NCBI GenBank assembly: GCA_900756725.1
Contig: CAAELJ010000155.1
Span: forward strand, 1-60,064
Source: an uncultured Collinsella sp.
GTDB taxonomy: Bacteria; Actinomycetota; Coriobacteriia; Coriobacteriales; Coriobacteriaceae
Reading direction: 5' to 3'
Length of the DNA: 60,064 nt
Part shown: piece after piece, positions 26,294 through 54,810 of the stretch
Layout of the letters: every line of letters begins with the position of its first letter
How positions within the stretch are numbered: the first letter of the stretch is position 1
Program-made: the position numbers and the translations under genes
Notes under the pieces: generated by a model
What the model was told of the DNA's origin: nothing
Databases searched by the model: none
Seen by the model: only the letters and a program-made list of their open reading frames with translations

Positions 26294-26340
26294 TTGACAA
26301 CAGGCTAAACTAGCTCATAAACATTTACTATTATGTTTAG
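26294..26340 (+). promoter_or_regulatory. lacI-family gene promoter with TAAAC/GTTTA operator-like half sites
   Basis: TTGACA at 26294, CTAAAC at 26305, TAAACATTTA at 26318 and GTTTAG at 26335. Confidence 0.5.
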
Positions 26341-26414
26341 TTTGAATTTGCGGCCGTTTAGTTGCCGAGCCATCGAGTCGCGATGCTCCACCACGGCCGC
26401 CGCTAGGGGGACCA

Positions 26415-27425
26415 ATGGCCAAAGCAAGTGTTCGCGAGATCAGCCGCATCACCGGTTTTTCGCCCGCAACCGTGTCCAACGCGCTCAACCGCAAGCGCAG
26501 CGTGAGCGAGGAGACCGCCAAGGTCATCCTGGAGTGTGCGCAGTCGCTCGGCTATCAGCAGTCGACGCAGCTCGAGAGCATCCAGTTTGTACTTGCGCGC
26601 AAGACGGGCGCCATCCTGGACGAGAGCACCTTCCATCCCGCGGTCATCGAGGGCGTGGAGCGCCAGGCGCGTCGTCACGGCATGAGCACGAGCTTTGTCA
26701 CACTCGACTTTAGCGACCTGGACGCCGTGCGCCCGCAGGTCGAGGGCCTGATCGCCGATCCGTCTGCTGCTATCGTGCTGATGGGCACCGAGCTGGGCGA
26801 GGAAGACTACGCCCTGTTCGCCAACGCTGCCGCCCACCTGATCGTGCTCGACGGTTGGAGCGATCGCCAGTACTTCGATGCCGTGGTCATTGCTAACACC
26901 GATTCGGTGCTGCGTGCCGTGGACTACCTTATCGAGAAGGGCCACAGACAAATCGGCTACCTGGCAGGCGACCTTCGCATTCGCAACTTTAAAGATCGTG
27001 AGCGCGGCTATCGCCAAGCGCTTGAGGATGCGGACCTCGAGGCCAACCCGACCTGGCACGTCACGCTGGGCACCACGCTCGAGGGTGCTTATCGCGACAT
27101 GGGCGCGTGGCTCGACGGCGTCTCGCGCGATGACTTGCCGACGGCCTTCTTTGCCGAGAACGACGTGCTCGCCGTGGGCGCTATGCGCGCCCTGAACGAG
27201 CACGGCATACGCGTGCCCGAGGATGTTTCGATCATCGGCTTTGACGACCTATCTTTGGGCGCTTTCTCCAACCCGCCGCTCACCACGGTGCACGTTCCCA
27301 AGCACGAGGTGGGCGAGATCGCGGTGCGCCGTCTGGTGGGCAACATCCGCAATCCCAAGAGCTACACCTGCAAGACAGCCGTATCGACCTATTTTGTCGA
27401 GCGCCAGAGCGTGCGCGAGCTCTAG
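26415..27425 (+). CDS. LacI-family transcriptional regulator
   Basis: N-terminal HTH (SVREISRITGFSPATVSNALN), GHRQIG and VPEDVSIIGFDD...PPLTTV. Confidence 0.95.
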   Translation: MAKASVREISRITGFSPATVSNALNRKRSVSEETAKVILECAQSLGYQQSTQLESIQFVLARKTGAILDESTFHPAVIEGVERQARRHGMSTSFVTLDFSDLDAVRPQVEGLIADPSAAIVLMGTELGEEDYALFANAAAHLIVLDGWSDRQYFDAVVIANTDSVLRAVDYLIEKGHRQIGYLAGDLRIRNFKDRERGYRQALEDADLEANPTWHVTLGTTLEGAYRDMGAWLDGVSRDDLPTAFFAENDVLAVGAMRALNEHGIRVPEDVSIIGFDDLSLGAFSNPPLTTVHVPKHEVGEIAVRRLVGNIRNPKSYTCKTAVSTYFVERQSVREL

Positions 27426-27486
27426 GCGAAAGCGGCATCGCACGCGCCGTGCCAAGATGCGCGGGGCGGCACGCATAACGTCGTTC

Positions 27487-27516
27487 AAAGAGGGGGTCCT
27501 TCGGGGCCCTCTTTTT
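27487..27516 (+). terminator. Intrinsic terminator
   Basis: AAAGAGGGGGTCC-TTCG-GGGCCCTCTTTTT. Confidence 0.7.
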
Positions 27517-27537
27517 GTTCCCCTTGTATGTTCAGAT

Positions 27538-27661
27538 TGTTTACATACCGTTTAGGCTGATTTCTCTACCGTCTACGGGTATTTCGCGTTAAACTTCTAA
27601 ACAGAAGAGTAAAACATTTAGTAAACAGAACAAAACGAAACACGCGTCTGTTTACTGAACA
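27538..27661 (+). promoter_or_regulatory. AT-rich promoter/operator region of the isomerase operon
   Basis: Dense TAAAC/GTTTA sites. TGTTTACTGAAC (27649-27660) is the exact reverse complement of 51732-51743. Confidence 0.6.
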
Positions 27662-27682: not shown

Positions 27683-29083
27683 ATGGATAAGATCAAGCTC
27701 GGTTTTGTGCCCACGCGCCGCAGCATCTTTAGCGCGCCGGACGCGATCAAGTATCGCGGCCTGACGGCTGATCGCCTGCGCGAGATCGGCGTCGACATCG
27801 TGGATATCGACGACATCAACGACGAGGGCCTGCTGTTCGATGACAGCCATATCGAGCCTATCGTCAAGAAGTTCCGCGCCGAGGGCGTCGACGGCATCAT
27901 GCTGTGCCACGCCAACTTTGGCACCGAGTATGTCTGCGCCCGCCTTGCCCGCGAGCTCGGCCTGCCCGTGCTGCTGTGGGGCCCGCGCGACGAGCGCCCC
28001 GAGCCCGATGGCACCCGTCTGCGCGATAGCCAGTGCGGCCTGTTCGCCACCGGCAAGGTCCTGCGCCGCTTCCGGGTTCCCTTCACCTATATGACCAACT
28101 GCCGCCTGACCGACCCCGAGTTCGAGCGCGGCGTCTGGGACTTCTTGGCTGTGTGCAACGTGGTCAAGACCTTCAAGCACACCCGCATTCTGCAGATGGC
28201 CACCCGTCCGTTCGACTTCTGGTCCACGATGTGCAACGAGGGTGAGCTGCTCGAAAAGTTCAATATCCAGCTTTCGCCCATCCCCATGACCGAGCTTGTC
28301 CAGGCCGTGCGCGATGCCCAGGCCGACGAGCAGGCCATGAACGCCATGCTCGCCCACATCACCGACAGCTTTGAGATCTGCATCCCCGAGGACAAGGTCC
28401 CCGCGGTCGCAGGGCTCGCCATCGCCATGAAGCGCCTGGTCGAGAAGTACGGTTGCAACGCCGGCGCCATCCAGTGCTGGAACGCCCTGCAGGACGAGCT
28501 GGGCATTATGCCCTGCGCCGCCAACGCCATCCTCAACGAGATGGGCATCCCCGTCGTGTGCGAGACCGATATCCACGGCGCCATCACCGCGCTGATGGTC
28601 GAGGCGGCCGACCTGGGCCGTCACCGCGGCATGTTCGCCGACTGGACCGTGCGCCATCCCGATAACGAGAACGGCGAGCTGCTGCAGCACTGCGGCCCCT
28701 GGCCCTGCAGCTGTGCGGCCGTCAAGCCTAAGCTCACCTACCCGCTGGCCTTCGATCACCCCGGCGCGCTGACGGCCGAGGCCAAGCACGGCGACCTCAC
28801 CCTTGCCCGCTTTGACGGCGACAACGGCGAGTACTCGCTGCTGCTGGGCAACGCCCGCGGCATCGACGGCCCGGCCGGCATGGGCACCTACCTGTGGGTC
28901 GAGGTCGACAATCTCAAGCGCCTCGAGGCCAAGATCGTCGAGGGCCCCTACATCCACCACTGCGTCGCCATTCACGCCAACGTGGTGCCGGTGCTCTACG
29001 AGGTGTGCAAGTACATCGGCATTGCCCCCGACCTGTACGACCCGATTGAAGAAGACGTCAAAGCCTACCTGCGAGGAGAGTAG
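27683..29083 (+). CDS. L-fucose/L-arabinose isomerase-family sugar isomerase (candidate apiose isomerase)
   Basis: NFGTE, RDSQCG, AIQCW, VVCETDIHGA, HCGP and YIHH motifs typical of the FucI-like family. Confidence 0.85.
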   Translation: MDKIKLGFVPTRRSIFSAPDAIKYRGLTADRLREIGVDIVDIDDINDEGLLFDDSHIEPIVKKFRAEGVDGIMLCHANFGTEYVCARLARELGLPVLLWGPRDERPEPDGTRLRDSQCGLFATGKVLRRFRVPFTYMTNCRLTDPEFERGVWDFLAVCNVVKTFKHTRILQMATRPFDFWSTMCNEGELLEKFNIQLSPIPMTELVQAVRDAQADEQAMNAMLAHITDSFEICIPEDKVPAVAGLAIAMKRLVEKYGCNAGAIQCWNALQDELGIMPCAANAILNEMGIPVVCETDIHGAITALMVEAADLGRHRGMFADWTVRHPDNENGELLQHCGPWPCSCAAVKPKLTYPLAFDHPGALTAEAKHGDLTLARFDGDNGEYSLLLGNARGIDGPAGMGTYLWVEVDNLKRLEAKIVEGPYIHHCVAIHANVVPVLYEVCKYIGIAPDLYDPIEEDVKAYLRGE

Positions 29084-29085: not shown

Positions 29086-29922
29086 ATGGCAACTATCGAA
29101 GAGCTTGAGTCCCTGCGTTGGGACCTTCGCCGCGATTGCGTCGATATCATCATGGCTGGCGCCGGCGGCCACATCGGCGGCGACATGTCGGTGATCGACG
29201 CCCTCATGACCCTCTACGCCAACCACCTCAACATTTCGCCCGAGACCGTCGACGATCCCGGTCGCGACCGCTTCGTGCTCTCTAAGGGCCACGCCATGGA
29301 GGCCTACTACGCGGTGCTCTGCCACGAGGGCTATCTGGACCTCGACGACGTCAAGGCCCGCTTCTCCAAGTTCGGCAGCCCCTACATCGGTCACCCCAAC
29401 AACAAGCTCAAGGGCATCGAGATGAACTCCGGTTCGCTGGGCCATGGCCTGCCCGTGGCCGTGGGCATGGCGCTTGCCGGCAAGATGGACGGCCGCGACT
29501 ACCGCGTCTACACCATCATGGGTGACGGCGAGCTTGCCGAGGGCTCGGTCTGGGAGGGCGCCATGAGCGGCGGCAACTACCAGCTCGATAATCTGTGCGC
29601 GCTCGTGGACCGCAACCGCCTGCAGATCAGCGGCAGCACCGAGGACGTCATGAAGCAGGACTCGCAGGAGGAGCGCTGGGCCGCCTTCGGCTGGAACGTG
29701 CTCTCCATTCCGGGCAACGACGTCCAGGCCATCGACGCCGCGCTGACGCTGGCCGCCGAGACCAAGGGTAAGCCCACGGTCATCATCCTCAACACGGTGA
29801 AGGGCTATGGCTCGCCCGTTATGGAGGACAAGGCCTCCTGGCATCATCACCTGCCCAACGATGAGGAATATGCCCAGATCATCGCCGATTTCGCTGCCCA
29901 TAAGGAGGCCATCAATGGCTAA
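29086..29922 (+). CDS. Transketolase, N-terminal (ThDP-binding) subunit
   Basis: GHIGG, DRFVLSKGH, GSLGHG and GDGELAEG..WE motifs. Confidence 0.95.
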   Translation: MATIEELESLRWDLRRDCVDIIMAGAGGHIGGDMSVIDALMTLYANHLNISPETVDDPGRDRFVLSKGHAMEAYYAVLCHEGYLDLDDVKARFSKFGSPYIGHPNNKLKGIEMNSGSLGHGLPVAVGMALAGKMDGRDYRVYTIMGDGELAEGSVWEGAMSGGNYQLDNLCALVDRNRLQISGSTEDVMKQDSQEERWAAFGWNVLSIPGNDVQAIDAALTLAAETKGKPTVIILNTVKGYGSPVMEDKASWHHHLPNDEEYAQIIADFAAHKEAING

Positions 29923-30853
29923 CAAGATCGCCAATCGCAAGGTTATCTGCGACACGCTGCTCGAGGCCGCGAAGACCGATAAGGACATCGTCGTCCTGTG
30001 CTCCGACTCCCGCGGCTCCGCGTCGCTCACGCCGTTCTTCGATCGGTATCCCCAGCAGTCCGTCGAGGTCGGCATTGCCGAGCAGGACCTGGTGAGCATC
30101 GCCGCCGGCATGGCTTCGTGCGGCAAGAAGGCCTGGGCCGCCTCGCCGGCGTCCTTTGTGACCACGCGCTCGTATGAGCAGTGCAAGGTCGACGTCTCGT
30201 ACTCCAACACCAATGTTAAGCTCATCGGCATCTCGGGCGGCGTGTCCTACGGCGCCTTAGGTATGAGCCACCACTCTGCGCAGGATATCGCCGCCATGAG
30301 CGCGATTCCCAACATGCGCGTGTATCTGCCGAGCGACCGCTTCCAGACCGCCGAACTCGTGCGCGCCCTGGTCAACGATAACAAGCCGGCCTACATCCGC
30401 GTGGGGCGCAACCCGGTCGAGGACGTGTATACCGAGGACGAGTGTCCGTTCCAGATGGACCGTGCCACCTGGGTTCGCCGCGGCAACGATGTGACGCTCG
30501 TCGCCACCGGTGAGATGGTCCGCCACGCCGTGGATGCCGCCGACCTGCTGGCCGAGCAGGGCATTTCGGCAACGGTGCTCGACATGTACTGCGTCAAGCC
30601 GCTCGACGCCGAGGCCGTGATCGAGGCTGCCGGTGCCACGCGCGCCGTCGTGACGGTCGAGGAGCACAGCCCCTTCGGCGGCCTGGGCTCTATGGTCGCG
30701 CAGGCGGTGGGCGAGCATTGCCCGCGTCCGGTCAAGTGCCTGAGCCTGCCCGACGCGCCGGTCATCACCGGCACGAGCCCCGAGGTCTTTGCGCACTACG
30801 GCCTCACCGGCGAAGGCATTGCCAAGACCGTCGCCGAGTTCCTCGGCAACTAG
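29915..30853 (+). CDS. Transketolase, C-terminal subunit
   Basis: VGIAEQ, GMSHH, VKPLD and VEEH..GGLGS motifs. Start MANK overlaps the upstream stop. Confidence 0.95.
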   Translation: MANKIANRKVICDTLLEAAKTDKDIVVLCSDSRGSASLTPFFDRYPQQSVEVGIAEQDLVSIAAGMASCGKKAWAASPASFVTTRSYEQCKVDVSYSNTNVKLIGISGGVSYGALGMSHHSAQDIAAMSAIPNMRVYLPSDRFQTAELVRALVNDNKPAYIRVGRNPVEDVYTEDECPFQMDRATWVRRGNDVTLVATGEMVRHAVDAADLLAEQGISATVLDMYCVKPLDAEAVIEAAGATRAVVTVEEHSPFGGLGSMVAQAVGEHCPRPVKCLSLPDAPVITGTSPEVFAHYGLTGEGIAKTVAEFLGN

Positions 30854-31027: not shown

Positions 31028-32518
31028 ATGAGTAAATACATCATCGGGATCGATCAGTCCACGCAGGGCACCAAGGCGCTGCTGGTGGACGAGGGCGGCC
31101 ATTTGATTCATCGTGCCGACCGCTCGCATCGCCAGATTGTCAACGAGGCCGGCTGGGTGAGCCATGATCCGGCCGAGATTGCCGCCAATGTGCTGGCCGT
31201 GGCGCGCGCTGTGGTGGAGGAGACCGGGGTCGATCCGGCCGACATCGCCGGCATCGGCATCTCCAACCAGCGCGAGACCACCGTTGCCTGGAACCGCACG
31301 ACGGACGAGCCGCTGTGCGATGCCGTGGTGTGGCAGTGCGCCCGCGCCCGCGAGCTGTGCGACAAGCTGGCCGCGCGCGAGGGTGTGGCCGAGCTGGTGC
31401 GTGACACGACGGGTCTGGTGCTCTCGCCCTACTACCCGGCGGGCAAGATGGCCTGGATCCTCGCGAACGTTCCCGCTGCTGCCGAGGCTGCCGCGGCGGG
31501 CGAGCTGTGCCTGGGTACCATCGATGCCTGGGTGGTCTGGACGCTCACGGGCGGTGCGGAGTTCCGCTGCGACTGGTCTAACGCCAGCCGCACGCAGCTC
31601 TTTGACCTGCGCCGTGGCTGCTGGAGCGAGCCGGTGTGCGAGGCCTTTGGCGTCGACGTGGCCTGCCTGCCGCAGGTGACCGATTCCGACGGCCTGTTCG
31701 GCACGACGGATCTGGGCGGCTTTTTGCCGGCGCCCGTGCCCATTCACGGCGTGCTCGGCGACAGCCACGCGGCCTTGTTTGCCCAAGGCTGCCATAGTCG
31801 CGGCATGGCCAAGGCGACCTATGGCACCGGCAGCTCGGTCATGATGAACGTCGGCAACGAGTTCGTTGCCAGCTCGCACGGGCTTTCGAGCTCGCTCGCA
31901 TGGCGCATGGACGGCGTGACCGAGTACGTGCTCGAGGGCAACGTGAGCTATGCCGGCGCCGTCAAGACGTGGCTGCGCGACGATCTGGAGCTCATCAATA
32001 ACCCCGAGGAAGTTACCGACCTGTGCTACGCCGCCAATCCGGCGAGCCGCGTCTACTTTGTGCCGGCGTTTACCGGTTTGGGCGCGCCGCACTGGGCGAG
32101 TGACGCCGAGGGCTGCGTCTTTGGCATGACGCGCACCACGGGTCGCGCGGAGTTCGTAAAAGCTGCAGACGAATCGATTGCCTATCAAATCTTTGACGTA
32201 ATTGACGCAATGGTCGAGGATTCGGGCGCGGCACTTGCCGAGCTTCGCGTTGACGGCGGTCCCACGCGCGATGCGTACCTGATGCAGTTTGAGAGCGACT
32301 TGGTTGGCTCGCCTATCCGCATCGCGAGCAACGACGAGATGAGCGGCCTGGGTGCGGCCTGGGCCTGCGGCATTGCGCTGGGCATGTATACGCGCGATGT
32401 CGTCGACGTCTATGGGGCCCGCGGCATCGTGGAGCCTGCCATGACCGCCGACGAGCGCGCCAAAAAGATCACCGGCTGGCGCCACGCCGTAGCCGCCACC
32501 ATCTCGTACACTGCCTAG
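31028..32518 (+). CDS. FGGY-family carbohydrate kinase, glycerol-kinase-like (candidate apulose kinase)
   Basis: IDQSTQGTK, ISNQRET, VWQC, NASRT, GDSHAALF, KATYGTGS and VDGG motifs. Confidence 0.9.
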   Translation: MSKYIIGIDQSTQGTKALLVDEGGHLIHRADRSHRQIVNEAGWVSHDPAEIAANVLAVARAVVEETGVDPADIAGIGISNQRETTVAWNRTTDEPLCDAVVWQCARARELCDKLAAREGVAELVRDTTGLVLSPYYPAGKMAWILANVPAAAEAAAAGELCLGTIDAWVVWTLTGGAEFRCDWSNASRTQLFDLRRGCWSEPVCEAFGVDVACLPQVTDSDGLFGTTDLGGFLPAPVPIHGVLGDSHAALFAQGCHSRGMAKATYGTGSSVMMNVGNEFVASSHGLSSSLAWRMDGVTEYVLEGNVSYAGAVKTWLRDDLELINNPEEVTDLCYAANPASRVYFVPAFTGLGAPHWASDAEGCVFGMTRTTGRAEFVKAADESIAYQIFDVIDAMVEDSGAALAELRVDGGPTRDAYLMQFESDLVGSPIRIASNDEMSGLGAAWACGIALGMYTRDVVDVYGARGIVEPAMTADERAKKITGWRHAVAATISYTA

Positions 32519-32655
32519 AATGATTTTTCTGGGACGGGGATTAAAAAATCATTCGGGCCCCGTCCCGGGTAGCTCATTTGGGACGGGGCTTTTTTGACTG
32601 GTATGATTGGTGCGACCATTCCAACCAGCTAAAAGAGTCCCGTCCTAAATTGACT
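32519..32655. repeat. Cluster of family-3 GGGACGGG hairpins
   Basis: AATGATTTTT-CTGGGACGGGGATTA-AAAAATCATT (32519-32553), plus copies at 32571-32599 (+) and 32627-32655 (-). Confidence 0.75.
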
Positions 32656-32671: not shown

Positions 32672-33160
32672 ATGGAGCGCATCGCGAGTTTTTCCGTTGA
32701 CCATCTGCTGCTTGAGCCCGGCGTGTACGTGAGCCGCATCGACCGCGATCCGGCGACCGGTGCCGCCGTCACCACGTTTGACCTGCGCCTGACCACGCCC
32801 AACCAGGAGCCGGTCATGAACACGGCCGAGTGCCACACCATCGAGCATCTGGGTGCGACGTTCCTTCGCAATCATGCCGAGTGGTCGAGCCGCATTGTCT
32901 ACTTTGGCCCCATGGGCTGCCGCACGGGCTTTTACCTCGTCGTATTTGGCGAGGTGACGAGCGAGGAGATCTTGCCGCTCGTGCGTGAGCTGTTCGCGTT
33001 TGTCGCGGGCTTTGAGGGCGATGTTCCCGGTGCCGCTCCCGAGGAGTGCGGTAACTACCTGGACCAGAACCTCCCCATGGCAAACTGGCTTGCGCGCCGT
33101 TATCTCGACCGCGATCTGGCCGATATCGACGAGAAGCACCTGCACTATCAGCAGGCATAG
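32672..33160 (+). CDS. luxS: S-ribosylhomocysteine lyase
   Basis: SFSVDH, FDLR, HTIEH, PMGCRTGFY and CGNY motifs. Confidence 0.96.
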   Translation: MERIASFSVDHLLLEPGVYVSRIDRDPATGAAVTTFDLRLTTPNQEPVMNTAECHTIEHLGATFLRNHAEWSSRIVYFGPMGCRTGFYLVVFGEVTSEEILPLVRELFAFVAGFEGDVPGAAPEECGNYLDQNLPMANWLARRYLDRDLADIDEKHLHYQQA

Positions 33161-33261
33161 GGCCGCCCTCTGCCTCCAAACCGTTCACACGGAGATATTG
33201 ACCGTTTAACTGTTTAGAAGTGTTTATTCGAGGTCATTAGCACTAGCTCGCTTAAACTAGT

Positions 33262-33348
33262 TCTTAGAGTGATATTCAGGCAAGGCTCCTGAAGCAGCAT
33301 CTGTTGACATTGATTGTCGGATTCTGCTTCGGGAGCCTTGTTCTGTTT
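33262..33348 (+). promoter_or_regulatory. RAT-like element overlapping a leader terminator
   Basis: TGA-TAT-TCAGGCAAG overlaps the 5' arm of the hairpin CAAGGCTCCTGAAGCAG / CTGCTTCGGGAGCCTTG followed by TTCTGTTT, directly before a BglG-type gene. Confidence 0.65.
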
Positions 33349-33358
33349 AGGGGGGCAC

Positions 33359-34198
33359 ATGGAAATTGTTAAACGAATTAATACCAGCGCTGTCCTCTGC
33401 GTCGATGGAAATGGCAGACAGTTGGTTGCATTCGGCCGTGGTCTGGGGTTTAAGAATGTCGGAGACGAGGTCCCTCTTTCGGAGATTCAACGAACGTTTT
33501 ATAACGTTAGCTCTCGCTACATCGCTCTCGTTGACGAGGTCCCCGACGAGCTTCTTGAGCTTACCTCGGATGTTATTGATATGTCGACAGGTTTGCTGCC
33601 TTATGAGGTGAGCCCTAATTTGCCGTTTATCCTTGCGGACCATATCGCGTATGCGGTTAAGCGCAAAGAGCAAAATATCGTTGTCCGCATGCCTTTATCG
33701 TTTGATGTCCGCCAACAATATCCCGTCGAATTTAAAATCGGCGAGTATGCACTTAGGATAATCAGGAAACGTCTTAACGTTAGGCTTCCAGCTCATGAGG
33801 CAGTTGGAATTGCCATGGCGTTTATCAATAACATGGCCGATTCGGACTCATGCGAAGTAGTTAAAGAGTTTAGCGCGGATATCTACGATCGTGTTCTGGA
33901 GGAGTCAACCGTTGCTGTTGAAAATCGGCTTGGCATTCAAGTTGATCGGGAAGGTTTCGATTACGCAAGGTTCGCAACCCATCTTCAGTACTTATTCAAT
34001 AGGTTGAACTCTGGCGAAAGCATCGTGAGCGACAACCGCAAGATGTACCTCTCGCTCAAAAAAGAATATCCGGTGGCATCAATGTGCGCCGATGATATTG
34101 CTTCTGTTCTCAGCCGACTGACGGGGCGGGAACTTATAGACGAAGAAAGACTCTACCTCATGATGCACATCAATCGAATTGCATCGAAAACAAGGTAA
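33359..34198 (+). CDS. BglG/LicT-family PRD antiterminator
   Basis: CAT domain (GRGLGF), PRD1 LADHI, PRD2 RFATHL and YLMMHI. Confidence 0.9.
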   Translation: MEIVKRINTSAVLCVDGNGRQLVAFGRGLGFKNVGDEVPLSEIQRTFYNVSSRYIALVDEVPDELLELTSDVIDMSTGLLPYEVSPNLPFILADHIAYAVKRKEQNIVVRMPLSFDVRQQYPVEFKIGEYALRIIRKRLNVRLPAHEAVGIAMAFINNMADSDSCEVVKEFSADIYDRVLEESTVAVENRLGIQVDREGFDYARFATHLQYLFNRLNSGESIVSDNRKMYLSLKKEYPVASMCADDIASVLSRLTGRELIDEERLYLMMHINRIASKTR

Positions 34199-34266
34199 TT
34201 AGTTGGCAAAGGCGCGCGCTTTGCTGATGGTTACATATAAAACTCAACATGGGAGAAATGGTATTT

Positions 34267-35637: not shown

Positions 35638-35742
35638 ACAATTATTCGGGATGTAAGCTGCCGAAAACCCCGCGGCAGATTGCATGTGGTGGGCTTGCCG
35701 TTGATTCACGCGAGCCCACCCTCATTTTTGGAGTGACTAGCT

Positions 35743-43756: not shown

Positions 43757-43804
43757 TGGTGTGCGCGGATGTGTCCGCCAATCCGCGGCTGATGTTACGT
43801 GCCG

Positions 43805-44644: not shown

Positions 44645-44723
44645 GGTGTCCTCCTTTATCGAACGAAACCCATAGAAACAAATGCGGGGGTGCGGAACCC
44701 CCGCCAATTACCAGATAGAGGGG

Positions 44724-45959: not shown

Positions 45960-46007
45960 GGTGATCTTCCTTTCTCGTCAAAGGCCGGGTGGTATTGGTC
46001 GGATTGC

Positions 46008-47330: not shown

Positions 47331-47354
47331 GATCGGTCCTTTCCGTGCCGGAGA

Positions 47355-48092
47355 CTATGCGCCGATGGCGCCGCCGCAGTATTCGCAGCGCCCACTGGCA
47401 TCGGGAATGGTGGTGGCTCCGCAGAAGGGGCAGGTCACCGCGGTCTTGGGGGCCTTGGCGGCCACGACGCTGTCGCGCGTCTCCTGGCGCAGCTGCACCA
47501 GCGCGTCGCGGACCTCGGTTGCCTGGCGCTTGGCCTCGCGGTATTCGATGGAGCCGCGCTGATCGATGGTGGAGTCGTTTACGCGCAGGTTGATCTCGGT
47601 AAAGTACGGCGTGTTGACGTGGATGGTCAGATTAAAGTCGTAATCCAGGTCGTAGCGCGGCGGGTTGTAGCTCTCGCGCTCGCCGTCCTTGGTCTCGCGA
47701 TAGATTTCGGTGCGATGCTCGTCGATATCCATATCGCAGCCGAGTACCTGCGAGAACTCGATGATGTCGGGATTGGCGTCGCGCCAGCGGCTCTGCGAGG
47801 TAATGATCAGCAGGCCCGCGTCCTCGTCGAGCATGATGTTGGTGCGCCCGGCAGAAAGCGTGCGCGTGGGGTTGAACGACGCCAGGCGCTCGGCATTGGC
47901 CTCGCGGTAGGCGAGCTGCTCGCGGATATCGTCCGCGGTGCTGGAGCGATAGCCGTGAAAGTAGGGGGAGAGCTTGCCGGCGCACTCTTTGCACAGGTAG
48001 CCTTCATTGATTTTTGTCTTACCTAGAAGTCCCAGCTCGGTACCGCAAATCGCGCACTCTTTCTTCTCGAACATCTTGTCAAAGAAGCCCAT
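47355..48092 (-). CDS. DUF4428-like zinc-finger protein
   Basis: MGFF..CAICG..LGLLG..GYLCKEC and C-terminal CPFCGA..CEYCG. Confidence 0.78.
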   Translation of the reverse strand: MGFFDKMFEKKECAICGTELGLLGKTKINEGYLCKECAGKLSPYFHGYRSSTADDIREQLAYREANAERLASFNPTRTLSAGRTNIMLDEDAGLLIITSQSRWRDANPDIIEFSQVLGCDMDIDEHRTEIYRETKDGERESYNPPRYDLDYDFNLTIHVNTPYFTEINLRVNDSTIDQRGSIEYREAKRQATEVRDALVQLRQETRDSVVAAKAPKTAVTCPFCGATTIPDASGRCEYCGGAIGA

Positions 48093-48213
48093 GGCTGCCT
48101 CCCATCAACTGGTAGCGTGTGTCACTTTTGATGATGGGGGAGTGCGCAGCCTTTCACGATACCCAGACGGCTCAACGAGTCTCCACAACTGGGACACATG
48201 GCCCATTTTTCCT

Positions 48214-48381
48214 ACTCATTGGGGACGTACTTAAATGAGTGAAACTACTCATTTAAGTACGTCCCCAATGAGTGCTCGCAGAACGAGAGTGGATAATCTC
48301 CCATTTTTGGCCTGCTTGTGGGCTCAAAGTGGGAGATTGTCCGCTCTCGTTGTTTGGGTGTCCAAAAATCCCCGCTCGTTT
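48214..48381. repeat. Family-1 hairpin (48214-48240) plus 144-bp composite repeat, copy 2 (48238-48381)
   Basis: Two back-to-back, opposite ACTCATT-loop-AATGAGT hairpins. The downstream 115 bp match 39379-39493 at 102/115 positions. Confidence 0.9.
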
Positions 48382-48440: not shown

Positions 48441-49952
48441 CTATGCCACGGTTACGGCGATTTGGGCGTAGCGGGTGCAGGGGCGCTCGGCGCGCGTCTG
48501 GACGGTGAGGGTGAGCACAAGGCGGTCGCCGGGTCGCGCGTCGGCGGGCACGATGAAAGCGGTGTCTACCGTGCATTCTTGCCACATCGACAGATCCTGG
48601 ACGCCTGCATAGCTCGATGGGTCTACGGCCACATCCCAATGTGCATCGAAGCCCTTGCCGTCGGGGTCGACGATGGTCGCTGTAAGGTTGACGCGCTCGC
48701 CGGCTGTGGCGCTGCGGTCGGCAGTGACCTCGACAACATGCGCCGGATGCGAGCAGATGGCCGGATCATGGGCACACCATTGCGCGCGGGCGGCAAAGTC
48801 TTCCTGATAGGCACGCAGATAGGGATTGAGATTGTCGTCTGCGGGCGTGCCGATGGAGGCAAAACCGGCGGGCGCGTTCGCATCGGGATGCCCATCAAAA
48901 AACATGCGTCCCAGCAGCGTATCGAAGCCGCGGTCGTCGATACCGCGCAGGCCAAACGGCAGCAGCGGAATATAGGTCATGCTGTCGCCTTCGGCCATAA
49001 AATCGCCGCGCTCAAACTGCATCGCGGGCATGCCTTCCAGGCCCCAATCCAGACGGGCATGCTTGCCAAACTGAAAGCGCTCAGGCTCGTTTTCGTAGAC
49101 CTTACCATCGCCATAGAGCATATAGCGTGCCATGAGGGGGCCGTTGCCCTGCGTGAGATTCTGCTCGGGCCAGGGAGCCTTAAACAGCGGCAGCGTATCG
49201 GGCTGAGCTGTTTTGGCGTCGAAATAGTTGCCATACATATAGGGCGTACGCCAAAAGATGAGCTCGGGAAAGAGCTCGCGCCCATGGTCGAGCCACGAGT
49301 TGTCCTGTCCCACGCCATCGGCAACGCCCATCACGCGCACCTTCTGATAGACCTGCTGCTGCACGGCGGGCCACTCGGGCGTGGCGCGATAGCGCTCGGC
49401 AATACTCATGAGGGCGCGAACGATCGTATTCATACCACCCCAGCTGAGCAACCATAACGTACGCGGATCATCATCCAGAATCGCCTGCGCAATTACGCGA
49501 GACCCCTCAGTTTCCTCAGTCACATCACCCTCAAAGGCAACATTTCCCACAAAGGTGCGCTCGATCATCTGGGCGGGCGTGGGAAACGGCGGCTCACCGG
49601 CAGCGGCCGCATTTGCCTGCAACTGCGGCCAAGCCTGGGCATATTCATTACTCCAGAGACTCTCAATCCAATGCTCGGGAAACGGCCGATACTCACGAAG
49701 CTCGCCGGCTAGCGGATCGGGCTCATGAGGCGCAACAGCCCACTCATAAGAGCGCCGCCCTTTGGTCCGCCAATGCGAATTCACCTCGCCGAGCGTATGA
49801 ACCCCATCCCCAAGAAAGTGATACTGCGAAGCCGTATACACCACAGCCTGAACATCAAGCAAGTTGAGATACAGAGCCAAATGAACAAGTGAGTTCATAT
49901 CATCGACTTCCATATCAGTGGTAACAATCACCCGAGTCAACTTCTGGGACAT
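48441..49952 (-). CDS. DUF1593-family protein (nucleoside-hydrolase-like N domain + Ig-like C domain)
   Basis: RVIVTTDMEVDD..SL, WGGMNT, QD, EGDS and DFAARAQW motifs. No signal peptide was seen. Confidence 0.78.
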   Translation of the reverse strand: MSQKLTRVIVTTDMEVDDMNSLVHLALYLNLLDVQAVVYTASQYHFLGDGVHTLGEVNSHWRTKGRRSYEWAVAPHEPDPLAGELREYRPFPEHWIESLWSNEYAQAWPQLQANAAAAGEPPFPTPAQMIERTFVGNVAFEGDVTEETEGSRVIAQAILDDDPRTLWLLSWGGMNTIVRALMSIAERYRATPEWPAVQQQVYQKVRVMGVADGVGQDNSWLDHGRELFPELIFWRTPYMYGNYFDAKTAQPDTLPLFKAPWPEQNLTQGNGPLMARYMLYGDGKVYENEPERFQFGKHARLDWGLEGMPAMQFERGDFMAEGDSMTYIPLLPFGLRGIDDRGFDTLLGRMFFDGHPDANAPAGFASIGTPADDNLNPYLRAYQEDFAARAQWCAHDPAICSHPAHVVEVTADRSATAGERVNLTATIVDPDGKGFDAHWDVAVDPSSYAGVQDLSMWQECTVDTAFIVPADARPGDRLVLTLTVQTRAERPCTRYAQIAVTVA

Positions 49953-50031: not shown

Positions 50032-51369
50032 TTAGCGGTCGACCCTGGCCGACCACTCCCAGCAGCCCACCGGCTCGCCGTCGATGAGTACGTTGCCCCC
50101 GTCGAAGTCTTGATAACACAGGTCGTTGAATTGGTGGATCCACACGCCGTGGTTGAACGTCTTCTTGGCCGAGCCGTCGGCCTCGCGATACACGCCGGTC
50201 AGGTCCTCGACATGGCTAAAGTAGGTGAGGTGCACGTTGGCGCCGGCATCGCGCAGGCGCGCCGTGAGCGGCAGCACGGTCTGTTGCGGTGACACGAGCT
50301 CGTCGCCCTTGGAGTGCGTAAACCACAGCGGCGTCTTGGCGAGCGCGGCCACGTCCTCGTCCGTGGCGTTGTACCACGGGGCGCAGCAGGGAAGGCCCGC
50401 GGCGAAGAAATCGGGGTAGTCGGCGCACAGGCGCAGGGTCATAAAGCCGCCGTTGGAAAGACCGGCGACCACGATGCGGTCGGTGTCGATGCGGTCGGCA
50501 TGCTCGGCGACAAACTCATCGATAAGTGCCTTGAGCACGGGGGAGTAGATGCTCTGGTTGGAGTGACCAAGCTGCTCGACGCCGTTGTCCATCCAAAACG
50601 TGGGCGACTGCGGTACGAGCACCCAGGCAAAGCCGCCAAAGTAGCGCTGGATCTGCGCCTGGCTGATGGCCGTCACGCGGTTGCCGATATAGGCGCGCGT
50701 GGCGCCTTCGCCCTGCGTGGCGCCCTTGCCCTCGCCGGCGCCGTGCAGATACACCACGAGCGGTGCCTTTTGGGGCACGGCCGTGGCCTCGGGCGCAAAG
50801 GGGTTGAAGCATGCCGAGTCCTCGGCCTTAAAGCTGGGCTCAAAGAAGCCGTATTCGAGCGCGATACCGTCGACGGCGGTCTTTTGCGTGTCGTTGCTCC
50901 AGCCTTTGAGCGCAGGGCAGATATCGCCACGGCAGGTGTCGAAGACCAGGCCGCAGGTGGGATCGTCGCCGTCGTTGCCGGGAAGAGCCGCGAGCTGCGT
51001 GATGTGCAACTGGTCATCGAGCATGCGCGAGCCCATGACGCCGCCTTCGATCTTTTTGGTCAGGCGCTGCTCGGCGACCTCGAGCGCCACATGGGTGCCC
51101 ACGGCGAGCTTACGTCCGTTCTCGTCGCACGGATATGCGGCGAGAACGTCGATGTAACCCACGGAGGGCGCGGCATGGTCGGCGCCGCGTTCCTTGCGCA
51201 TCAGAACATCGCCCGAGCGCTCGTGACGCTCTACATATATATGGAAGGTGTTCGCGTCGATGTCGTTGGCGCGCACGGTGCAGGGCAGGTCGAGTACGAC
51301 CTTGCTGATCCAGGGGCCAAAGTCGCCCAAGGTGGTGACGGTTGCGTAGGTACACAATTTGAGTTCCAT
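50032..51369 (-). CDS. Esterase/peptidase (alpha/beta hydrolase with N-terminal Ig-like domain)
   Basis: PLVVYLHGAGE, VLVPQ, GLSNGG, HSKGD and NHGVW motifs. Confidence 0.82.
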   Translation of the reverse strand: MELKLCTYATVTTLGDFGPWISKVVLDLPCTVRANDIDANTFHIYVERHERSGDVLMRKERGADHAAPSVGYIDVLAAYPCDENGRKLAVGTHVALEVAEQRLTKKIEGGVMGSRMLDDQLHITQLAALPGNDGDDPTCGLVFDTCRGDICPALKGWSNDTQKTAVDGIALEYGFFEPSFKAEDSACFNPFAPEATAVPQKAPLVVYLHGAGEGKGATQGEGATRAYIGNRVTAISQAQIQRYFGGFAWVLVPQSPTFWMDNGVEQLGHSNQSIYSPVLKALIDEFVAEHADRIDTDRIVVAGLSNGGFMTLRLCADYPDFFAAGLPCCAPWYNATDEDVAALAKTPLWFTHSKGDELVSPQQTVLPLTARLRDAGANVHLTYFSHVEDLTGVYREADGSAKKTFNHGVWIHQFNDLCYQDFDGGNVLIDGEPVGCWEWSARVDR

Positions 51370-51417
51370 GAGCTGTCTCCCTTGCGCCGCGAATGCCTGG
51401 CATCTGCGGCAATACAA

Positions 51418-51753
51418 ACTAAACATGTTTAGTGTAATCTAGAATTGAAGAATAACAAGATGAACTCGGTAAACGGCAAAATTGAACACGTCGTGAACTA
51501 CTAAACGTATGTTTACTAGCTTCTAGCAGGGATTCTGTTGATGAGTTAACAGATCAGTGAGGTGTTCATCAAAATAAAATCCCACGTAAATGGCTATATA
51601 TCAATAGAGGGTCAAAGAGACCATCTCCCGCCATTCAAATACGTTCACCCCCGATTTCCTACCGTTCACCGGACTGTAGACGGCAAAATTGCCATAAATT
51701 CGGCGCTCCGTGTAAACTAAAGCCCGTAAACGTTCAGTAAACACCTTGTTTAC
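51418..51753. promoter_or_regulatory. Divergent promoter region with TAAAC/GTTTA operator-like sites
   Basis: Perfect palindrome ACTAAACATGTTTAGT (51418-51433), CTAAACGTATGTTTAC (51501) and GTAAACGTTCAGTAAACACCTTGTTTACA (51726). Confidence 0.65.
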
Positions 51754-51859
51754 AAAAGCGTATCCAAGGGTCCGGCAACCGTAAGGGGTTATAGTCGCCG
51801 GGCCAAAGGCGTGCCTAAGCCCAAGGGGACTGGCACACGAAGATATGGGGAGGGGTCCC

Positions 51860-53287
51860 ATGGCAGTAGATAACAAGCAGATTGCCACCGATGTCCTCGA
51901 GCTCGTGGGCGGTGCGGAGAATGTTTCCGTTGCCACCAACTGCATGACGCGCCTGCGTCTGACGCTCAAGGATAACAGCAAGGCCGACGTGGAGAAGATC
52001 AAGAAGGTCAGGGGTGTTCTGGGTTGCCAGTTTGCCGGCAGCCAGCTCCAGGTCATCATCGGCCAGAACGTGCCCAAGGTGCTCGCCGAGTTCGTCGCCA
52101 TCTCCGGTGTCAAGCAGGGTGAGGCCGTCAACGAGAACCTCGATGCTCCCAAGGAGAAGTTCGAGCTCAAGAACCTGCCCAATATCATCCTCGACTATCT
52201 GTCGGGCTCCATGACCCAGCTCATCCCGCTGCTCATGGCCGGCGGTCTGTTCCGTACCATCGCGGCCGTCCTCGGCCCCACCATGCTCGGTGTGCTCTCG
52301 GCCGACGACCCGACCTATACGTTCCTCTACACCACGCTGTACGAGGCCACGTTCACCTTTATCCCCATCTACCTGGGTTATGCCGCGGCTAAGAAGCTCG
52401 GCGCCAGCCCGGTGCTCGGCATGCTGCTCGGTGGCGCCCTCATGGCTCCTTCCGTGGTGAGCGTCGCCACCCAGGAGGGCGGCGGAATCATCTCCGTCTA
52501 CGGCATCCAGATCGCCGCTGCCAACTACCAGCAGTCCGTCCTGCCGATCATCCTTTCGGTGCCCGTCCTGTACTTCATCGAGAAGTTCTTTAAGAAGGTT
52601 ATGCCCGACGTGCTGTCCACGGTCTTCACGCCGTTCTGCACCATGATCGTCACGATCCCCATTGCCTTCATCGTCCTCGCTCCGATCGGCAACGAGATCG
52701 GTACGCTGATCGCCAACGCCCTCTTCGGCCTTGCTGACCTTGGCGGCATCGGCATCCTGATCGTCATGGCCATCCTCGGCGCCTTCTGGCAGCTCTTCGT
52801 GGTCTGCGGCATGCACATGCCCGTCATCCTGCTCGCCCAGGTTCAGATCATCGCTGCCGGTTACGATCCCTTCGTCTTCGTTTCCACCAACTGCGCTATG
52901 GCCGCTGTCTGGGGCTGCGCCTTCGGTGCCTTCCTCAAGATGAAGAACCCCGACGAGAAGTCTCTCGCCATCGGTTACGTCATCTCCGCCATCGCCGGCG
53001 GCGTCACCGAGCCCGCGCTCTTCGGTATCCTCATGCGCTTCCGTCGCACCATGTTTGGCATGTTCATCGGCGGTGCTATCGGCGCTGTGTTCTCCGGCCT
53101 CATGGGTGTTACCTACTACCTCGCAGGCGGTGCCTCCAACTTCCTGGTCTTCACCAACTACCTGCAGGGTGGCCAGATGAACACCGTCTGGGCTATCGTT
53201 GGTATGGCAATCTCCTTTGTCATCGCCGCTGCCGTCGTCTTTGTCTCCGGCTTCTCCAAGGAGGAGCTCGCCGAGATGGAGGCCTAA
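51860..53287 (+). CDS. PTS EIIBC, beta-glucoside class (no EIIA)
   Basis: NCMTRLR, QLQVIIG, GMH and GGVTEPALFG motifs. Confidence 0.92.
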   Translation: MAVDNKQIATDVLELVGGAENVSVATNCMTRLRLTLKDNSKADVEKIKKVRGVLGCQFAGSQLQVIIGQNVPKVLAEFVAISGVKQGEAVNENLDAPKEKFELKNLPNIILDYLSGSMTQLIPLLMAGGLFRTIAAVLGPTMLGVLSADDPTYTFLYTTLYEATFTFIPIYLGYAAAKKLGASPVLGMLLGGALMAPSVVSVATQEGGGIISVYGIQIAAANYQQSVLPIILSVPVLYFIEKFFKKVMPDVLSTVFTPFCTMIVTIPIAFIVLAPIGNEIGTLIANALFGLADLGGIGILIVMAILGAFWQLFVVCGMHMPVILLAQVQIIAAGYDPFVFVSTNCAMAAVWGCAFGAFLKMKNPDEKSLAIGYVISAIAGGVTEPALFGILMRFRRTMFGMFIGGAIGAVFSGLMGVTYYLAGGASNFLVFTNYLQGGQMNTVWAIVGMAISFVIAAAVVFVSGFSKEELAEMEA

Positions 53288-53328
53288 GGCCAAACCGTTC
53301 GGTCGCATAAGACCTCACCTACACGACA

Positions 53329-53472
53329 GGGCCCCGTCAGGCGTAAGCCCGGCGGGGCCCTTCTTGCAAGGTAGACTGATGGAGGCGGGTGAGATTCGCC
53401 CGCGAGGGTTTGCCAAGCGCCGGGGGCTTTCGCGCGGGGTTATCGCGAAAGCCCCCGGCGGTTCGCAAATCC
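53329..53472 (+). other. Two strong intercistronic hairpins
   Basis: GGGCCCCGTC..GGCGGGGCCC followed by TTCTT (~53329-53365), and CCGGGGGCTTTCGCG / CGCGAAAGCCCCCGG (~53420-53458). Confidence 0.6.
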
Positions 53473-53496
53473 TTTATCAAACGAAAGGACATGCAG

Positions 53497-54810
53497 ATGA
53501 GTTTGGGAAAGCTGACCGCCAACGGTCGCCAGGACGGCTTTTTGTGCGAGGGCAAACCGTTCTTCTGGTTTGCCGATACGTGCTGGAGCGCATTTACGAG
53601 CATCGCCGAGAACGACTGGGATTACTACCTGACCCGCCGTGCCGAGCAGGGCATGAACGTGCTGCAGATCAACACGTTGCCGCAGTGGGATCGCTGCTGT
53701 CCCGACCTGGGCATTTGGCCCTATGCCAGCGAGGATGGCGTGCACTTTGATTGGTCCTGCCCCAACCAGGCGTATTGGGATCGTGCCGCCGCCATGTGCC
53801 GCGCGGCCGTCGAGCACGGCATTCGTCCGGCGCTCGTGCTCATGTGGTGCAACTACGTGCCCGGTACCTGGGGTGCCAAGATCGCCGAGCGTTGCGGTGC
53901 CGAGATTATGCCGCGTGAGGAGGTTCGCGCCCACGTTGCCCGCGTCGTCGAGAACCTGGGCGAGTTCGACCCCGTCTACGTGGTGGCGGGCGATACCGAC
54001 TTTGCCGGCGACGAGGCGATCGCCTATTACGAGGACGCCCTCGACGAGGTCGTCAAGCGCGCGCCCGAGGCACTGCGCACCATGCATATCAACCGCGGTA
54101 ACCGCACCATTCCGGCGCAGTATCTGGACCGTCTGGACTTTTATATGTTCCAGCCCGGCCACAACTACGAGGGCCAGCCCGAGGCATGGCGTCTGCCGCA
54201 GGACTTTATCGCCAACTATCCCAAAAAGCCGATGGTCAACTCCGAGCCTTGCTACGAGCAGATGGGTGCGTCGCGCAACGTCTACTGGCGTTTTACCGCG
54301 CAGGATTGCCGCGCGAGCGTATGGTCGTCGATTCTTGCCGGCGCCAGTGCCGGCGTGACCTATGGCGCACACGGCGTGTGGAACTGGCAAACATCGCGCA
54401 GCCAGGGTTCGGTCCTGGGCGAGGGCTTTGACATGCCCTTCCGCTGGCAAGAGTGCCTGCAGTTTGCGGGTGTGTGGGACTTTGGCGCGATCGAGCACGT
54501 GCTTGCCGCCCTAGGCGCTACGGCTGCCGACGATGCACTTGCCGTGGTTCCGGCGCAGGAGCTCCTCGACGACGCGCGCGAGTCCATCCGTGTGGCGCGC
54601 GTTGGCGATCGCATCGTCGCGTACCTGCCGCGTACCACGGCGCTCAAGTTTAAGCTCGACGGCGCGCGTGGCTGGACGGCGACGGTCCTCGACATGGAGG
54701 ACAAGCGCATCGCAAAGCTGCCCGTCCGTGACAACGGTGACGGCACCGTGCGCGTGGCGCAGCATCCCTTTGAGCACGACGCGCTGGTGATCCTGGCCCC
54801 CGGGCGCTAA
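53497..54810 (+). CDS. DUF4038 / GH140-like glycoside hydrolase (candidate apiosidase)
   Basis: GKPFFWFADTCW, R..QGMNVLQ, VAGD, FYMFQPGH, NSEPCYE and GVTYGAHGVW motifs. AAAGGA RBS; no signal peptide. Confidence 0.78.
   Translation: MSLGKLTANGRQDGFLCEGKPFFWFADTCWSAFTSIAENDWDYYLTRRAEQGMNVLQINTLPQWDRCCPDLGIWPYASEDGVHFDWSCPNQAYWDRAAAMCRAAVEHGIRPALVLMWCNYVPGTWGAKIAERCGAEIMPREEVRAHVARVVENLGEFDPVYVVAGDTDFAGDEAIAYYEDALDEVVKRAPEALRTMHINRGNRTIPAQYLDRLDFYMFQPGHNYEGQPEAWRLPQDFIANYPKKPMVNSEPCYEQMGASRNVYWRFTAQDCRASVWSSILAGASAGVTYGAHGVWNWQTSRSQGSVLGEGFDMPFRWQECLQFAGVWDFGAIEHVLAALGATAADDALAVVPAQELLDDARESIRVARVGDRIVAYLPRTTALKFKLDGARGWTATVLDMEDKRIAKLPVRDNGDGTVRVAQHPFEHDALVILAPGR

Follow-up and report, generated by a model that had tools for sequence, protein, structure and literature searches.

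What does a Collinsella strain do with a sugar isomerase, a two-subunit transketolase and a glycerol-kinase-like enzyme encoded close to a phosphotransferase system (PTS) and several hydrolases? This question is raised by a 60,064-nt stretch of DNA from an uncultured Collinsella sp. (contig CAAELJ010000155.1 of assembly GCA_900756725.1; hereafter the window), which has a G+C content of ~61% and encodes proteins with 96-100% identity to their counterparts in Collinsella aerofaciens and other Collinsella genomes. An earlier reading of the letters alone (the sequence-only reading) had proposed a regulon, split into two halves, for apiosides that are imported by the PTS. Assignment of Pfam and NCBIfam families to the open reading frames (ORFs) of the window recovered every gene named by that reading at its position. 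Most of the computational checks were in favour of the apioside interpretation, which stands in part; four of its points had to be corrected, concerning an insert, the place of a glycoside hydrolase family 1 (GH1) gene, an indel and the kinase. Judging from the sequence comparisons described below, the locus probably serves the uptake and intracellular breakdown of apiose-bearing beta-glucosides in Collinsella, coupled to the PTS.

The apiosidase-like protein and a proposed transporter

The gene at 53497-54810 (forward strand) encodes a protein that the sequence-only reading had taken for a cytoplasmic DUF4038 protein and a possible member of family GH140, and for which it had suggested a hidden Markov model check. 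This check placed the protein in the apiosidase-like family PF13204 (245.1 bits, cutoff 26.5). Its profile matched the solved 'Apiosidase' 8t9w at 7e-34, with positions 4-404 aligned against 3-405, and the BT1012 structures 3kzs/5msy at 2e-28. The motifs noticed earlier are retained as GD165 and EPCYE250, and GD, FQxGH, EPxYE and YGxH all align with the solved apiosidases. With BT1012 and 8t9w the protein shares the Pfam family, a full-length alignment and the motifs, and it may act as a beta-D-apiofuranosidase. BT1012 is periplasmic and removes apiose from galacturonic acid, according to the accessible part of bioRxiv 10.64898/2026.03.13.711244, whereas the distantly related window protein has no signal peptide and is encoded beside a PTS gene.

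This neighbouring gene (EIIBC2, 51845-53287, forward strand) encodes a Bgl-family PTS protein without a IIA domain (PF00367 and PF02378), which we propose as the importer. Its 348 bits to TIGR01995 are below the cutoff because the model also spans IIA. The EIIB domains of both PTS proteins of the locus retain the phosphorylatable Cys33 (N/HCMTRLR; NCMTRLR in EIIBC2). On the reverse strand follow an alpha/beta-hydrolase esterase with an EstA Ig-like N-terminal domain (esterase 2, 50032-51426; Pfam/NCBIfam) and a nucleoside-hydrolase-like DUF1593 protein (48441-49952; PF07632, 124 bits). A GH1 6-phospho-beta-glucosidase is encoded at 37835-39265 on the forward strand (NF007158, 887.5 bits, cutoff 639). 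Neither a signal peptide nor an N-terminal hydrophobic stretch was found in the GH140-like protein, DUF1593, GH1, DUF4867 (see below) or either esterase (15-residue hydropathy maximum <1.5); the chemistry is therefore predicted to be intracellular, in line with the cytoplasmic location proposed earlier for the DUF4038 protein.

Catabolic genes, their relatives and their recurrence

The catabolic genes lie on the forward strand in the left half of the locus. A LacI-family repressor (26415-27425; Pfam LacI and Peripla_BP_3), a candidate regulator of both gene sets, is followed by a FucI-superfamily aldose-ketose isomerase (27683-29083; weak PF02952, and 94 bits to the NCBIfam sulfoquinovose isomerase model SftI, whose cutoff is 700), the N-terminal, thiamine diphosphate (ThDP)-binding, AptA-like subunit of a transketolase (TktN, 29086-29922; PF00456), its AptB-like C-terminal subunit (TktC, 29915-30853 with refined start; PF02779 and PF02780) and a GlpK-like FGGY kinase whose pocket is of the AplK type (31028-32518; Pfam/NCBIfam). 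We propose that the isomerase would convert apiose to apulose and that the kinase would act on apulose.

A transketolase route of D-apiose catabolism via ApsI, AplK and AptA/AptB was reportedly described by Carter et al. in 2018. The available part of PMC13001218 names aplK, aptA and aptB in an E. coli ST131-type cluster next to entD and describes growth on D-apiose for cluster-bearing strains; it adds that apsI is a further gene of the Pectobacterium cluster, with two oxidoreductases in its stead in Escherichia. We found aptA, aptB and aplK beside entD on an E. coli chromosome (L087). A megablast search of the Klebsiella cluster against E. coli gave no match, a blastn search with the transketolase genes alone succeeded, and aptA-aptB-like DNA (~74% identity to Klebsiella) was present in 631/5426 complete E. 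coli genomes, always on the chromosome. In the Klebsiella and Rahnella clusters, a FucI-like isomerase gene lies between aptB and the kinase gene. The isomerisation slot of apiose-type clusters is filled variously: Klebsiella and Rahnella have this FucI-like enzyme, Streptomyces has a PF01261 TIM-barrel protein, and in E. coli, Rhizobium and Agrobacterium the slot is taken by short-chain dehydrogenase/reductase (SDR) oxidoreductases. Models for AplK-, AptAB- or ApsI-type enzymes do not exist in NCBIfam.

The window isomerase matched the Klebsiella/Rahnella isomerase in the apsI position over its full length (E 2e-42, 24.5% identity) and had no significant match to E. coli FucI or AraA. It is 59-74% identical to the cluster isomerases of Listeria, Lactiplantibacillus plantarum and Monoglobus. 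TktN is 41-43% identical to AptA of E. coli, Klebsiella and Rahnella, and TktC 36-40% identical to AptB. A maximum likelihood tree of the concatenated subunits, with 15 rows (14 split enzymes and one full-length root), grouped Collinsella, Monoglobus and Listeria (99/99) as sister to E. coli, Klebsiella and Rahnella together with Streptomyces, Rhizobium and Agrobacterium. The comparison with AptAB suggested by the sequence-only reading thus bore out its proposal for the transketolase, since the window enzyme falls within the joint AptAB-type clade (86/92), with five kinase-less split transketolases outside. A kinase gene adjoins the split transketolase in 9/9 clade members and in 0/5 outgroup split transketolases, and eight signature columns are common to the clade. 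The Streptomyces member has GH28, GH95, GH127, a GH141-like protein and a pectinesterase as neighbours; GH95, GH141 and GH28 take part in rhamnogalacturonan-II and pectin breakdown. The residues aligned with D469, R358, H461 and R520 of TktA were considered as an Apt marker and rejected, as the separation was not clean (for example, Leu at D469 in 1/5 outgroups).

With E. coli AplK the kinase shares 39% identity, and with GlpK 40%. The Phe at F271 of E. coli GlpK (GTGCF), which stacks on glycerol, is present in 6/6 GlpK and replaced by Ser in 9/9 transketolase-linked kinases. Similarly, GDQQAA of GlpK is changed to GDSHAA in 8/9 of these kinases and to ADSEAA in that of Listeria. The window enzyme carries GDSHAA and GTGSS like 6/6 AplK-type kinases, as opposed to GDQQAA and GTGCF in 6/6 GlpK. 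A grouping of the kinase with AplK was not recovered in a free tree, discussed below, although a joint clade is unrejected and the pocket signature is common to both.

For each of the four enzymes, the relatives closest in context belong to apiose clusters, and identity to them is low; orthology to the apiose enzymes is supported for the transketolase only. The gene set shares with the D-apiose transketolase route the same four enzyme families (FucI-superfamily isomerase, GlpK-like FGGY kinase and two-subunit transketolase), a joint transketolase clade, the kinase pocket signature and specifically related isomerases. It differs in its regulator, which is a SorC-type 'sugar-binding' protein there and LacI here, and in transport: a ribose-type ATP-binding cassette (ABC) system for free apiose there, a bgl-type PTS with a cytoplasmic GH140-like protein, GH1, esterases, DUF1593 and DUF4867 here. 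Since a PTS and glycosidases take the place of the transporter for free apiose, the input is probably a glycoside and not the free sugar.

The association of the catabolic genes with a PF13204 gene recurs in other lineages, for which a plasmid collection that includes some mislabelled chromosome pieces gave the context. In five of its records, one from Monoglobus pectinilyticus and two each from Listeria monocytogenes and L. plantarum, the isomerase has 59% identity or more to that of the window, and all five carry a PF13204 gene within 7 kb. Conversely, 4/5 records with a PF13204 homologue at least 36% identical carry the isomerase, the exception being an L. fermentum gene that lies alone among insertion sequence (IS) elements. 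Listeria has a compact seven-gene cluster consisting of a LacI gene and the run isomerase-TktN-TktC-kinase-PTS IIBCA-DUF4038. The order LacI-isomerase-tkt-tkt-kinase-PTS, given for lmo1030-1036 in the sequence-only reading, is therefore real, and its last gene encodes a DUF4038 protein. This cluster shares with the window the core order, at identities of 68% (isomerase), 51% (TktN), 54% (TktC), 37% (kinase) and 40% (DUF4038); it differs in having no GH1, DUF4867, DUF1593 or esterase gene and a PTS with its own IIA domain. The available parts of PMC2996996 and PMC4536003 give a gene list that agrees with the Listeria record, apart from one table that labels lmo1030, LacI in the record, as BglG-family. 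They describe lmo1030-1036, which contains glpK2, as lineage-variable and without assigned function, and cite earlier work in which replication in Caco-2 cells was affected by the loss of lmo1034.

In L. plantarum, PTS IIABC-DUF4038-LacI and isomerase-TktN are found on a mobilizable plasmid, and by this sequence context the cluster of PTS, DUF4038, isomerase and transketolase genes evidently moves horizontally. On this MOBQ plasmid (NZ_CP023307, 45000-64808; L082) it lies near recombinase genes, and genes annotated as ETX/MTX2 pore-forming toxin family protein and S-4TM effector are nearby. In Monoglobus, isomerase-TktN-TktC-kinase is followed by genes for a DUF5060-PF13204-DUF5605 protein and an SGNH esterase, and an extracellular solute-binding protein is encoded next to the LacI gene. 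A LacI gene flanks the isomerase operon in all three lineages, and the four catabolic genes are thus combined with two different PF13204 subfamilies and with transporters of two types. The co-occurrence of DUF4038 and a bgl-type PTS with the isomerase cluster was seen in Listeria and on the L. plantarum plasmid; in Monoglobus, the ABC-type binding protein takes the place of the PTS.

Putative operators are shared by the two gene sets of the window. There are four copies of the 8-mer AGTAAACA in 60 kb, where 0.4 would be expected: it occurs as an operator-like pair <70 nt upstream of the isomerase (27616-27660) and twice at 51510-51743, in the divergent promoter region of esterase 2 and EIIBC2 (51420-51752). 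All three TAAAC-N2-5-GTTTA palindromes of the window (3/3) are within the latter region, one of them overlapping a promoter-like site. The exact 12-mer GTTCAGTAAACA is present in both promoter regions (27649-27660 on the minus strand, and 51732-51743) and in 0/100 shuffles, a test that is biased because the 12-mer was picked after inspection of both regions. As sequence elements, these sites fit one LacI-type regulon. A further element, TAAACA-N10-TGTTTA, lies in front of LacI (26300-26345). In the gap between EIIBC2 and the GH140-like gene (53300-53480), there is a GC-rich hairpin with TTCTT after it, and a second inverted repeat, of 30 nt (53405-53473), is 90% complementary; these structures may be an internal attenuator or processing site. 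Rfam gave zero matches across 24000-56000.

From these data we infer a pathway, including its substrate, the phosphorylation of an apiosyl-glucoside by the PTS, deacylation and the co-induction of both gene sets. EIIBC2, together with the general PTS proteins and an EIIA whose gene lies elsewhere, would import and phosphorylate an apiosyl-beta-glucoside with a free glucose O-6, for example of the apiosyl-(1->2)-glucoside type. The cytoplasmic GH140-like enzyme would cleave off beta-D-apiofuranose, and the GH1 6-phospho-beta-glucosidase would then yield glucose-6-phosphate and the aglycone, with the esterases taking off acyl groups and DUF1593 carrying out some further step. The FucI-like isomerase, perhaps aided by the DUF4867 cupin, would convert apiose to apulose, the GlpK-like kinase would phosphorylate it, and the split transketolase would turn apulose-4-phosphate and glyceraldehyde-3-phosphate into dihydroxyacetone phosphate (DHAP) and xylulose-5-phosphate. 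The chemistry of the isomerase, kinase and transketolase steps is reportedly that of the 2018 work mentioned above. The LacI repressor probably governs the isomerase operon and the divergent promoters of the right half. Our search of the open literature, with subscription papers beyond reach, returned no paper linking apiose to a bacterial PTS or to DUF4038; the parts are of known kinds, and their combination appears new.

Several points weigh against this pathway. As single sequences, the GH140-like protein and the solved apiosidases match at 1.6e-20 and 5e-15; the relationship is distant, and the specificity could therefore differ. Apiosyl-(1->6)-glucosides, a common type in plants, lack the free O-6 that a bgl-type PTS would need. 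The window enzymes show low identity to their reference enzymes (isomerase 24.5%, TktN 41-43%, TktC 36-40%, kinase 39%), and the isomerases of the window and of the enterobacteria match the sulfoquinovose isomerase model alike weakly (94 and 114 bits). The transketolase clade was obtained from a small sample, 14 split enzymes and one full-length root of one collection, with moderate support. The free kinase tree places the Collinsella, Monoglobus and Listeria kinases as sister to six canonical GlpK (81/99), with the AplK-type kinases outside, although its root is a very long and unsafe XylB branch; an earlier 8-row kinase tree was unresolved. In an approximately unbiased (AU) test, uniting the nine transketolase-linked kinases cost 0.42 log-likelihood units (p-AU 0.418), which leaves their joint clade unrejected. 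The PTS linked to DUF4038 in Listeria and L. plantarum is nearer to EIIBC1, an optional PTS gene of the window (37-39%), than to EIIBC2 (29-31%), and the shuffle test of the 12-mer carries the bias described above. Finally, its position and the available part of PMC13001218 are the grounds on which the FucI-like gene of the enterobacteria is taken to be apsI.

Some of these points would also be expected if the same architecture handled a different plant sugar of an uncommon kind, with a ketose phosphate that requires a dedicated transketolase, and if the PF13204 subfamily had another specificity. Those solved relatives that bear the name apiosidase are distant, the isomerase has 24.5% identity with its enterobacterial counterpart and an equally weak match to the sulfoquinovose isomerase model, and the kinase is closer to GlpK in the free tree. 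On the other hand, the other 6 members of the transketolase clade all come from apiose-type or rhamnogalacturonan-II contexts, the kinase shares the pocket of AplK-type enzymes, and two PF13204 subfamilies are linked to the same catabolic genes, one of them in Monoglobus, a pectin specialist. We regard another sugar as unlikely, though the most serious of the alternatives to apiose.

Indels, optional modules and the coupling of the two gene sets

Why, then, does the locus look split? Strain variation was assessed by tblastn of the window proteins against 80 Collinsella loci (L008 and similar labels below), the best 80 of 579 confirmed relatives from a profile scan of genome contigs with the GH140 alignment; these best 80 were solely Collinsella/Coriobacteriaceae, and the comparison describes variation among strains, not across phyla. 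In the window, the GH1 and DUF1593 genes are separated by a block outside the pathway (39379-48381), bounded by 115-nt direct repeats (39379-39493 and 48267-48381, 89% identity). Its 8.9 kb (ORFs within 39614-48026) encode two histidine kinases, one of the seven-transmembrane (7TM) type and the other a HATPase kinase, as well as a LuxR-type response regulator; three more ORFs match no family, or at most a zinc ribbon weakly. DNA upstream of DUF1593 was available in 57/80 loci: 41 are window-like, 12 have GH1 adjoining DUF1593 with a gap of 161-326 nt, and 4 carry another BglG/EIIBC pair. In L008, window position 39383 is joined to ~48244 via a single repeat copy. Because of this junction and of the bracketing repeats, we interpret the separation as an indel without functional division. 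Both gene sets of the proposed two-part regulon are thus present, and what had been read as a split is a repeat-bounded insertion or deletion. A short repeat element with the core TCATTGGGGACGTACTTAAATGAGT marks both ends of the 8.9-kb block and recurs after the GH140-like gene (39356-39535, 48213-48381 and 54934-54970, with a 31-nt perfect inverted pair and the 115-nt direct pair). It has the look of a small family of intergenic repeats by which indels are brought about.

A second indel concerns the left half. A low-GC module at 33164-36801 (forward strand; GC 0.52-0.55, i.e. 52-55% against 59-66% in the surroundings) comprises a leader hairpin, a BglG/LicT-type antiterminator (33359-34198), EIIBC1 (34249-35637) and a BD-FAE esterase (esterase 1, 35743-36723), all assigned by Pfam/NCBIfam on the same strand. 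The leader hairpin (-47.7 kcal/mol, z -5.8) is followed by a U-rich run. L008 is without 33164-36801, with exact junctions, and L026, L029, L031 and L080 likewise have DUF4867 directly after LuxS. We treat the module, from its sequence features, as an optional, self-regulated beta-glucoside insert. The sequence-only reading had counted these three genes among the parts of the pathway; they are indeed there, but as an insert with its own antiterminator leader their membership is unsupported. Beside the module, between the kinase and BglG, lies luxS, a gene beyond the earlier list and a probable passenger (32672-33160, forward strand; 196 bits to PF02664 and a score over the cutoff of NF002604). 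A terminator-like hairpin flanks it at 32555-32591. The order FGGY-LuxS-DUF4867 is seen in L008, L029 and L080, and LuxS-DUF4867 in L026 and L031 too.

With the bgl/asc/lic aryl-beta-glucoside systems, the window shares EIIB/EIIC domains with the Cys motif, a GH1 above cutoff and a BglG-type antiterminator with leader hairpin. It differs from them in that EIIBC2 has no antiterminator leader and seems to be controlled by LacI, and in having, besides, another glycosidase family, two esterases and a pathway devoted to the sugar that is released.

The genes of the right half are invariant beside the GH140-like gene: EIIBC2 in 74/74, esterase 2 in 73/73 and DUF1593 in 65/65 Collinsella loci, the last number being those with enough upstream sequence. 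GH1, assigned to the left half in the sequence-only reading, belongs with this block, as it adjoins DUF1593 in the 12/57 loci, is found with DUF1593 in Selenomonas and stays with the block in L036 and L072 despite different upstream genes. Because the block is invariant and isomerase and PF13204 genes are linked in three other lineages, we consider the grouping to be more than chance. In addition, the loci differ around this block. Upstream of GH1, L036 (1-2900) and L072 (1-2860) are unlike the window, L036 encoding there a CBM6-bearing GH43-like protein and a GH35-like one that carries DUF5597; in terms of gene content, the region is a variable glycosidase island. L022, L024, L058 and L068 (~1700-4700) have an extra BglG-like (41%) and EIIBC-like (54% to EIIBC2) pair upstream of DUF1593. 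In L035, L040, L056, L066, L068 and L069, EIIBC2 is 69-70% identical, esterase 2 86% (95% in L040) and the GH140-like protein 96-97%, which by sequence is a divergent allele of the EIIBC2/esterase 2 pair.

This variability bears on a second alternative, namely that the modules are neighbours but uncoupled, the right half and GH1 serving decorated aryl beta-glucosides and the isomerase, transketolase and kinase serving a free sugar from another transporter. The variable island upstream of GH1 in L036 and L072 would fit this explanation, as would the separation of the halves in 41/57 informative loci, the Selenomonas genes for DUF1593, GH1 and PTS that occur with a rhamnosidase and without these catabolic genes, and the ABC-type binding protein of Monoglobus. 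However, Listeria and L. plantarum hold the PTS, DUF4038 and catabolic genes in one tight cluster with one LacI, the 12-mer and the AGTAAACA sites are common to both promoter regions, and the halves are adjacent in 12/57 loci. Uncoupled modules consequently seem improbable to us, more so than another sugar.

Minor alternatives, DUF4867, DUF1593 and biological meaning

On a further explanation, the kinase would be a second glycerol kinase of the ordinary type and the transketolase a redundant enzyme of the pentose-phosphate pathway, and there would be no dedicated pathway. The kinase passes the GlpK subfamily model NF000756 (539, cutoff 498) and matches solved glycerol kinases at 1e-124, and the Listeria and Monoglobus copies are annotated as glycerol kinase. 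Against it, lmo1034 is not strongly induced by glycerol, according to earlier work cited in the available part of PMC4536003. The bona fide AplK of E. coli is likewise a sub-threshold GlpK in NCBIfam, and the four genes travel together across phyla. We rejected a canonical GlpK identity, as the kinase misses the equivalog cutoff of TIGR01311 (532, cutoff 590) and the Phe and QQ of 6/6 GlpK are replaced, and we give this explanation very little credence.

Least probable of all is a variant of the sulfoquinovose (sulfo-transketolase) pathway, in which a kinase is not known to have a place. A GH31 sulfoquinovosidase, a sulfoacetaldehyde/sulfolactaldehyde reductase and a sulfonate exporter, which the window would share with SftI/SftX sulfoglycolysis clusters, were not found among its scanned ORFs. 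The likeness to such clusters consists of a related isomerase subfamily, with SftI as best NCBIfam match (94 bits against a cutoff of 700), and of the DUF4867 cupin (SftX), which is conserved in sulfoglycolytic clusters (PMC11968277, PMC7491151); yet the C. aerofaciens DUF4867 row in the available part of PMC11968277 carries the figures 267/298, which are those of a 298-sequence cluster with GH1, FucI-like and FGGY genes and not of the 127-sequence sulfoglycolysis cluster.

DUF4867 (36847-37491, forward strand; PF16161, 224 bits) matches the solved cupin 9gyy at 2.6e-37. The family has no assigned function; the neighbourhoods of its 298-sequence cluster hold GH1, FucI-like and FGGY genes, ten natural FGGY-DUF4867 fusions exist, and a role in anomer or ring interconversion of ketoses was proposed, which the authors' assay did not detect (PMC11968277). 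In the available part of its supplement, C. aerofaciens proteins with PF13204 and PF07632 appear in the neighbourhood, and mmc2 mentions PF13204 15, PF07632 23 and PF00456 130 times, the entries viewed all being Collinsella. From this family context, we propose that DUF4867 may be a helper for ring opening or anomer conversion of a ketose or furanose. In the gap between DUF4867 and GH1 (37500-37640), the 10-nt inverted repeat ATCTGTAACA ... TGTTACAGAT occurs in two tandem copies ~27 nt apart, which may be a protein site or an RNA structure.

DUF1593 matches 2yhg at 1e-17; no paper on it was found in the open literature searched, and a protein atlas search returned the DUF1593 family alone. A relative in Selenomonas ruminantium (27% identical) is encoded downstream of an alpha-L-rhamnosidase gene, with a bgl-type PTS on one side and GH1 on the other. 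The full run on pSRC2 (L105, 976-11835) reads hypothetical protein, alpha-L-rhamnosidase, metallo-beta-lactamase (MBL)-fold hydrolase, bgl-type PTS IIABC, DUF1593 and GH1, and is by analogy a candidate PTS-fed rhamnosyl-glucoside system of the same logic as the window. Directly upstream of LacI, a PfkB kinase and an inosine-uridine nucleoside hydrolase are encoded at 24161-26195, so that the nucleoside-hydrolase-like fold occurs twice in the locus.

Apiose is found in parsley and celery as flavone apiosides. Described bacterial routes take up free apiose via ABC transporters or use a periplasmic GH140 in Bacteroides. The available parts of PMC13753588 and bioRxiv 10.64898/2026.03.13.711244 name rhamnogalacturonan-II, parsley and celery as sources of the sugar. 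If our interpretation is true, a PTS-coupled and wholly intracellular route would represent a different mode of apiose harvest. The genes in question are numerous: clustered at 90% identity, the GH140-like protein falls in a cluster of 10,306 member sequences, and two clusters of the isomerase have 9,226 and 3,272, with isomerases 78-79% identical to that of the window in Lachnospiraceae. We tentatively extend the proposal, at slightly less than an even chance, to a cytoplasmic GH140 acting on a PTS-phosphorylated diglycoside and to a Gram-positive Apt route that is common and unrecognised in gut Collinsella and Lachnospiraceae. This would give a function to the Listeria operon lmo1030-1036 and provide the first concrete, testable roles for two domains of unknown function, DUF1593 and DUF4867.

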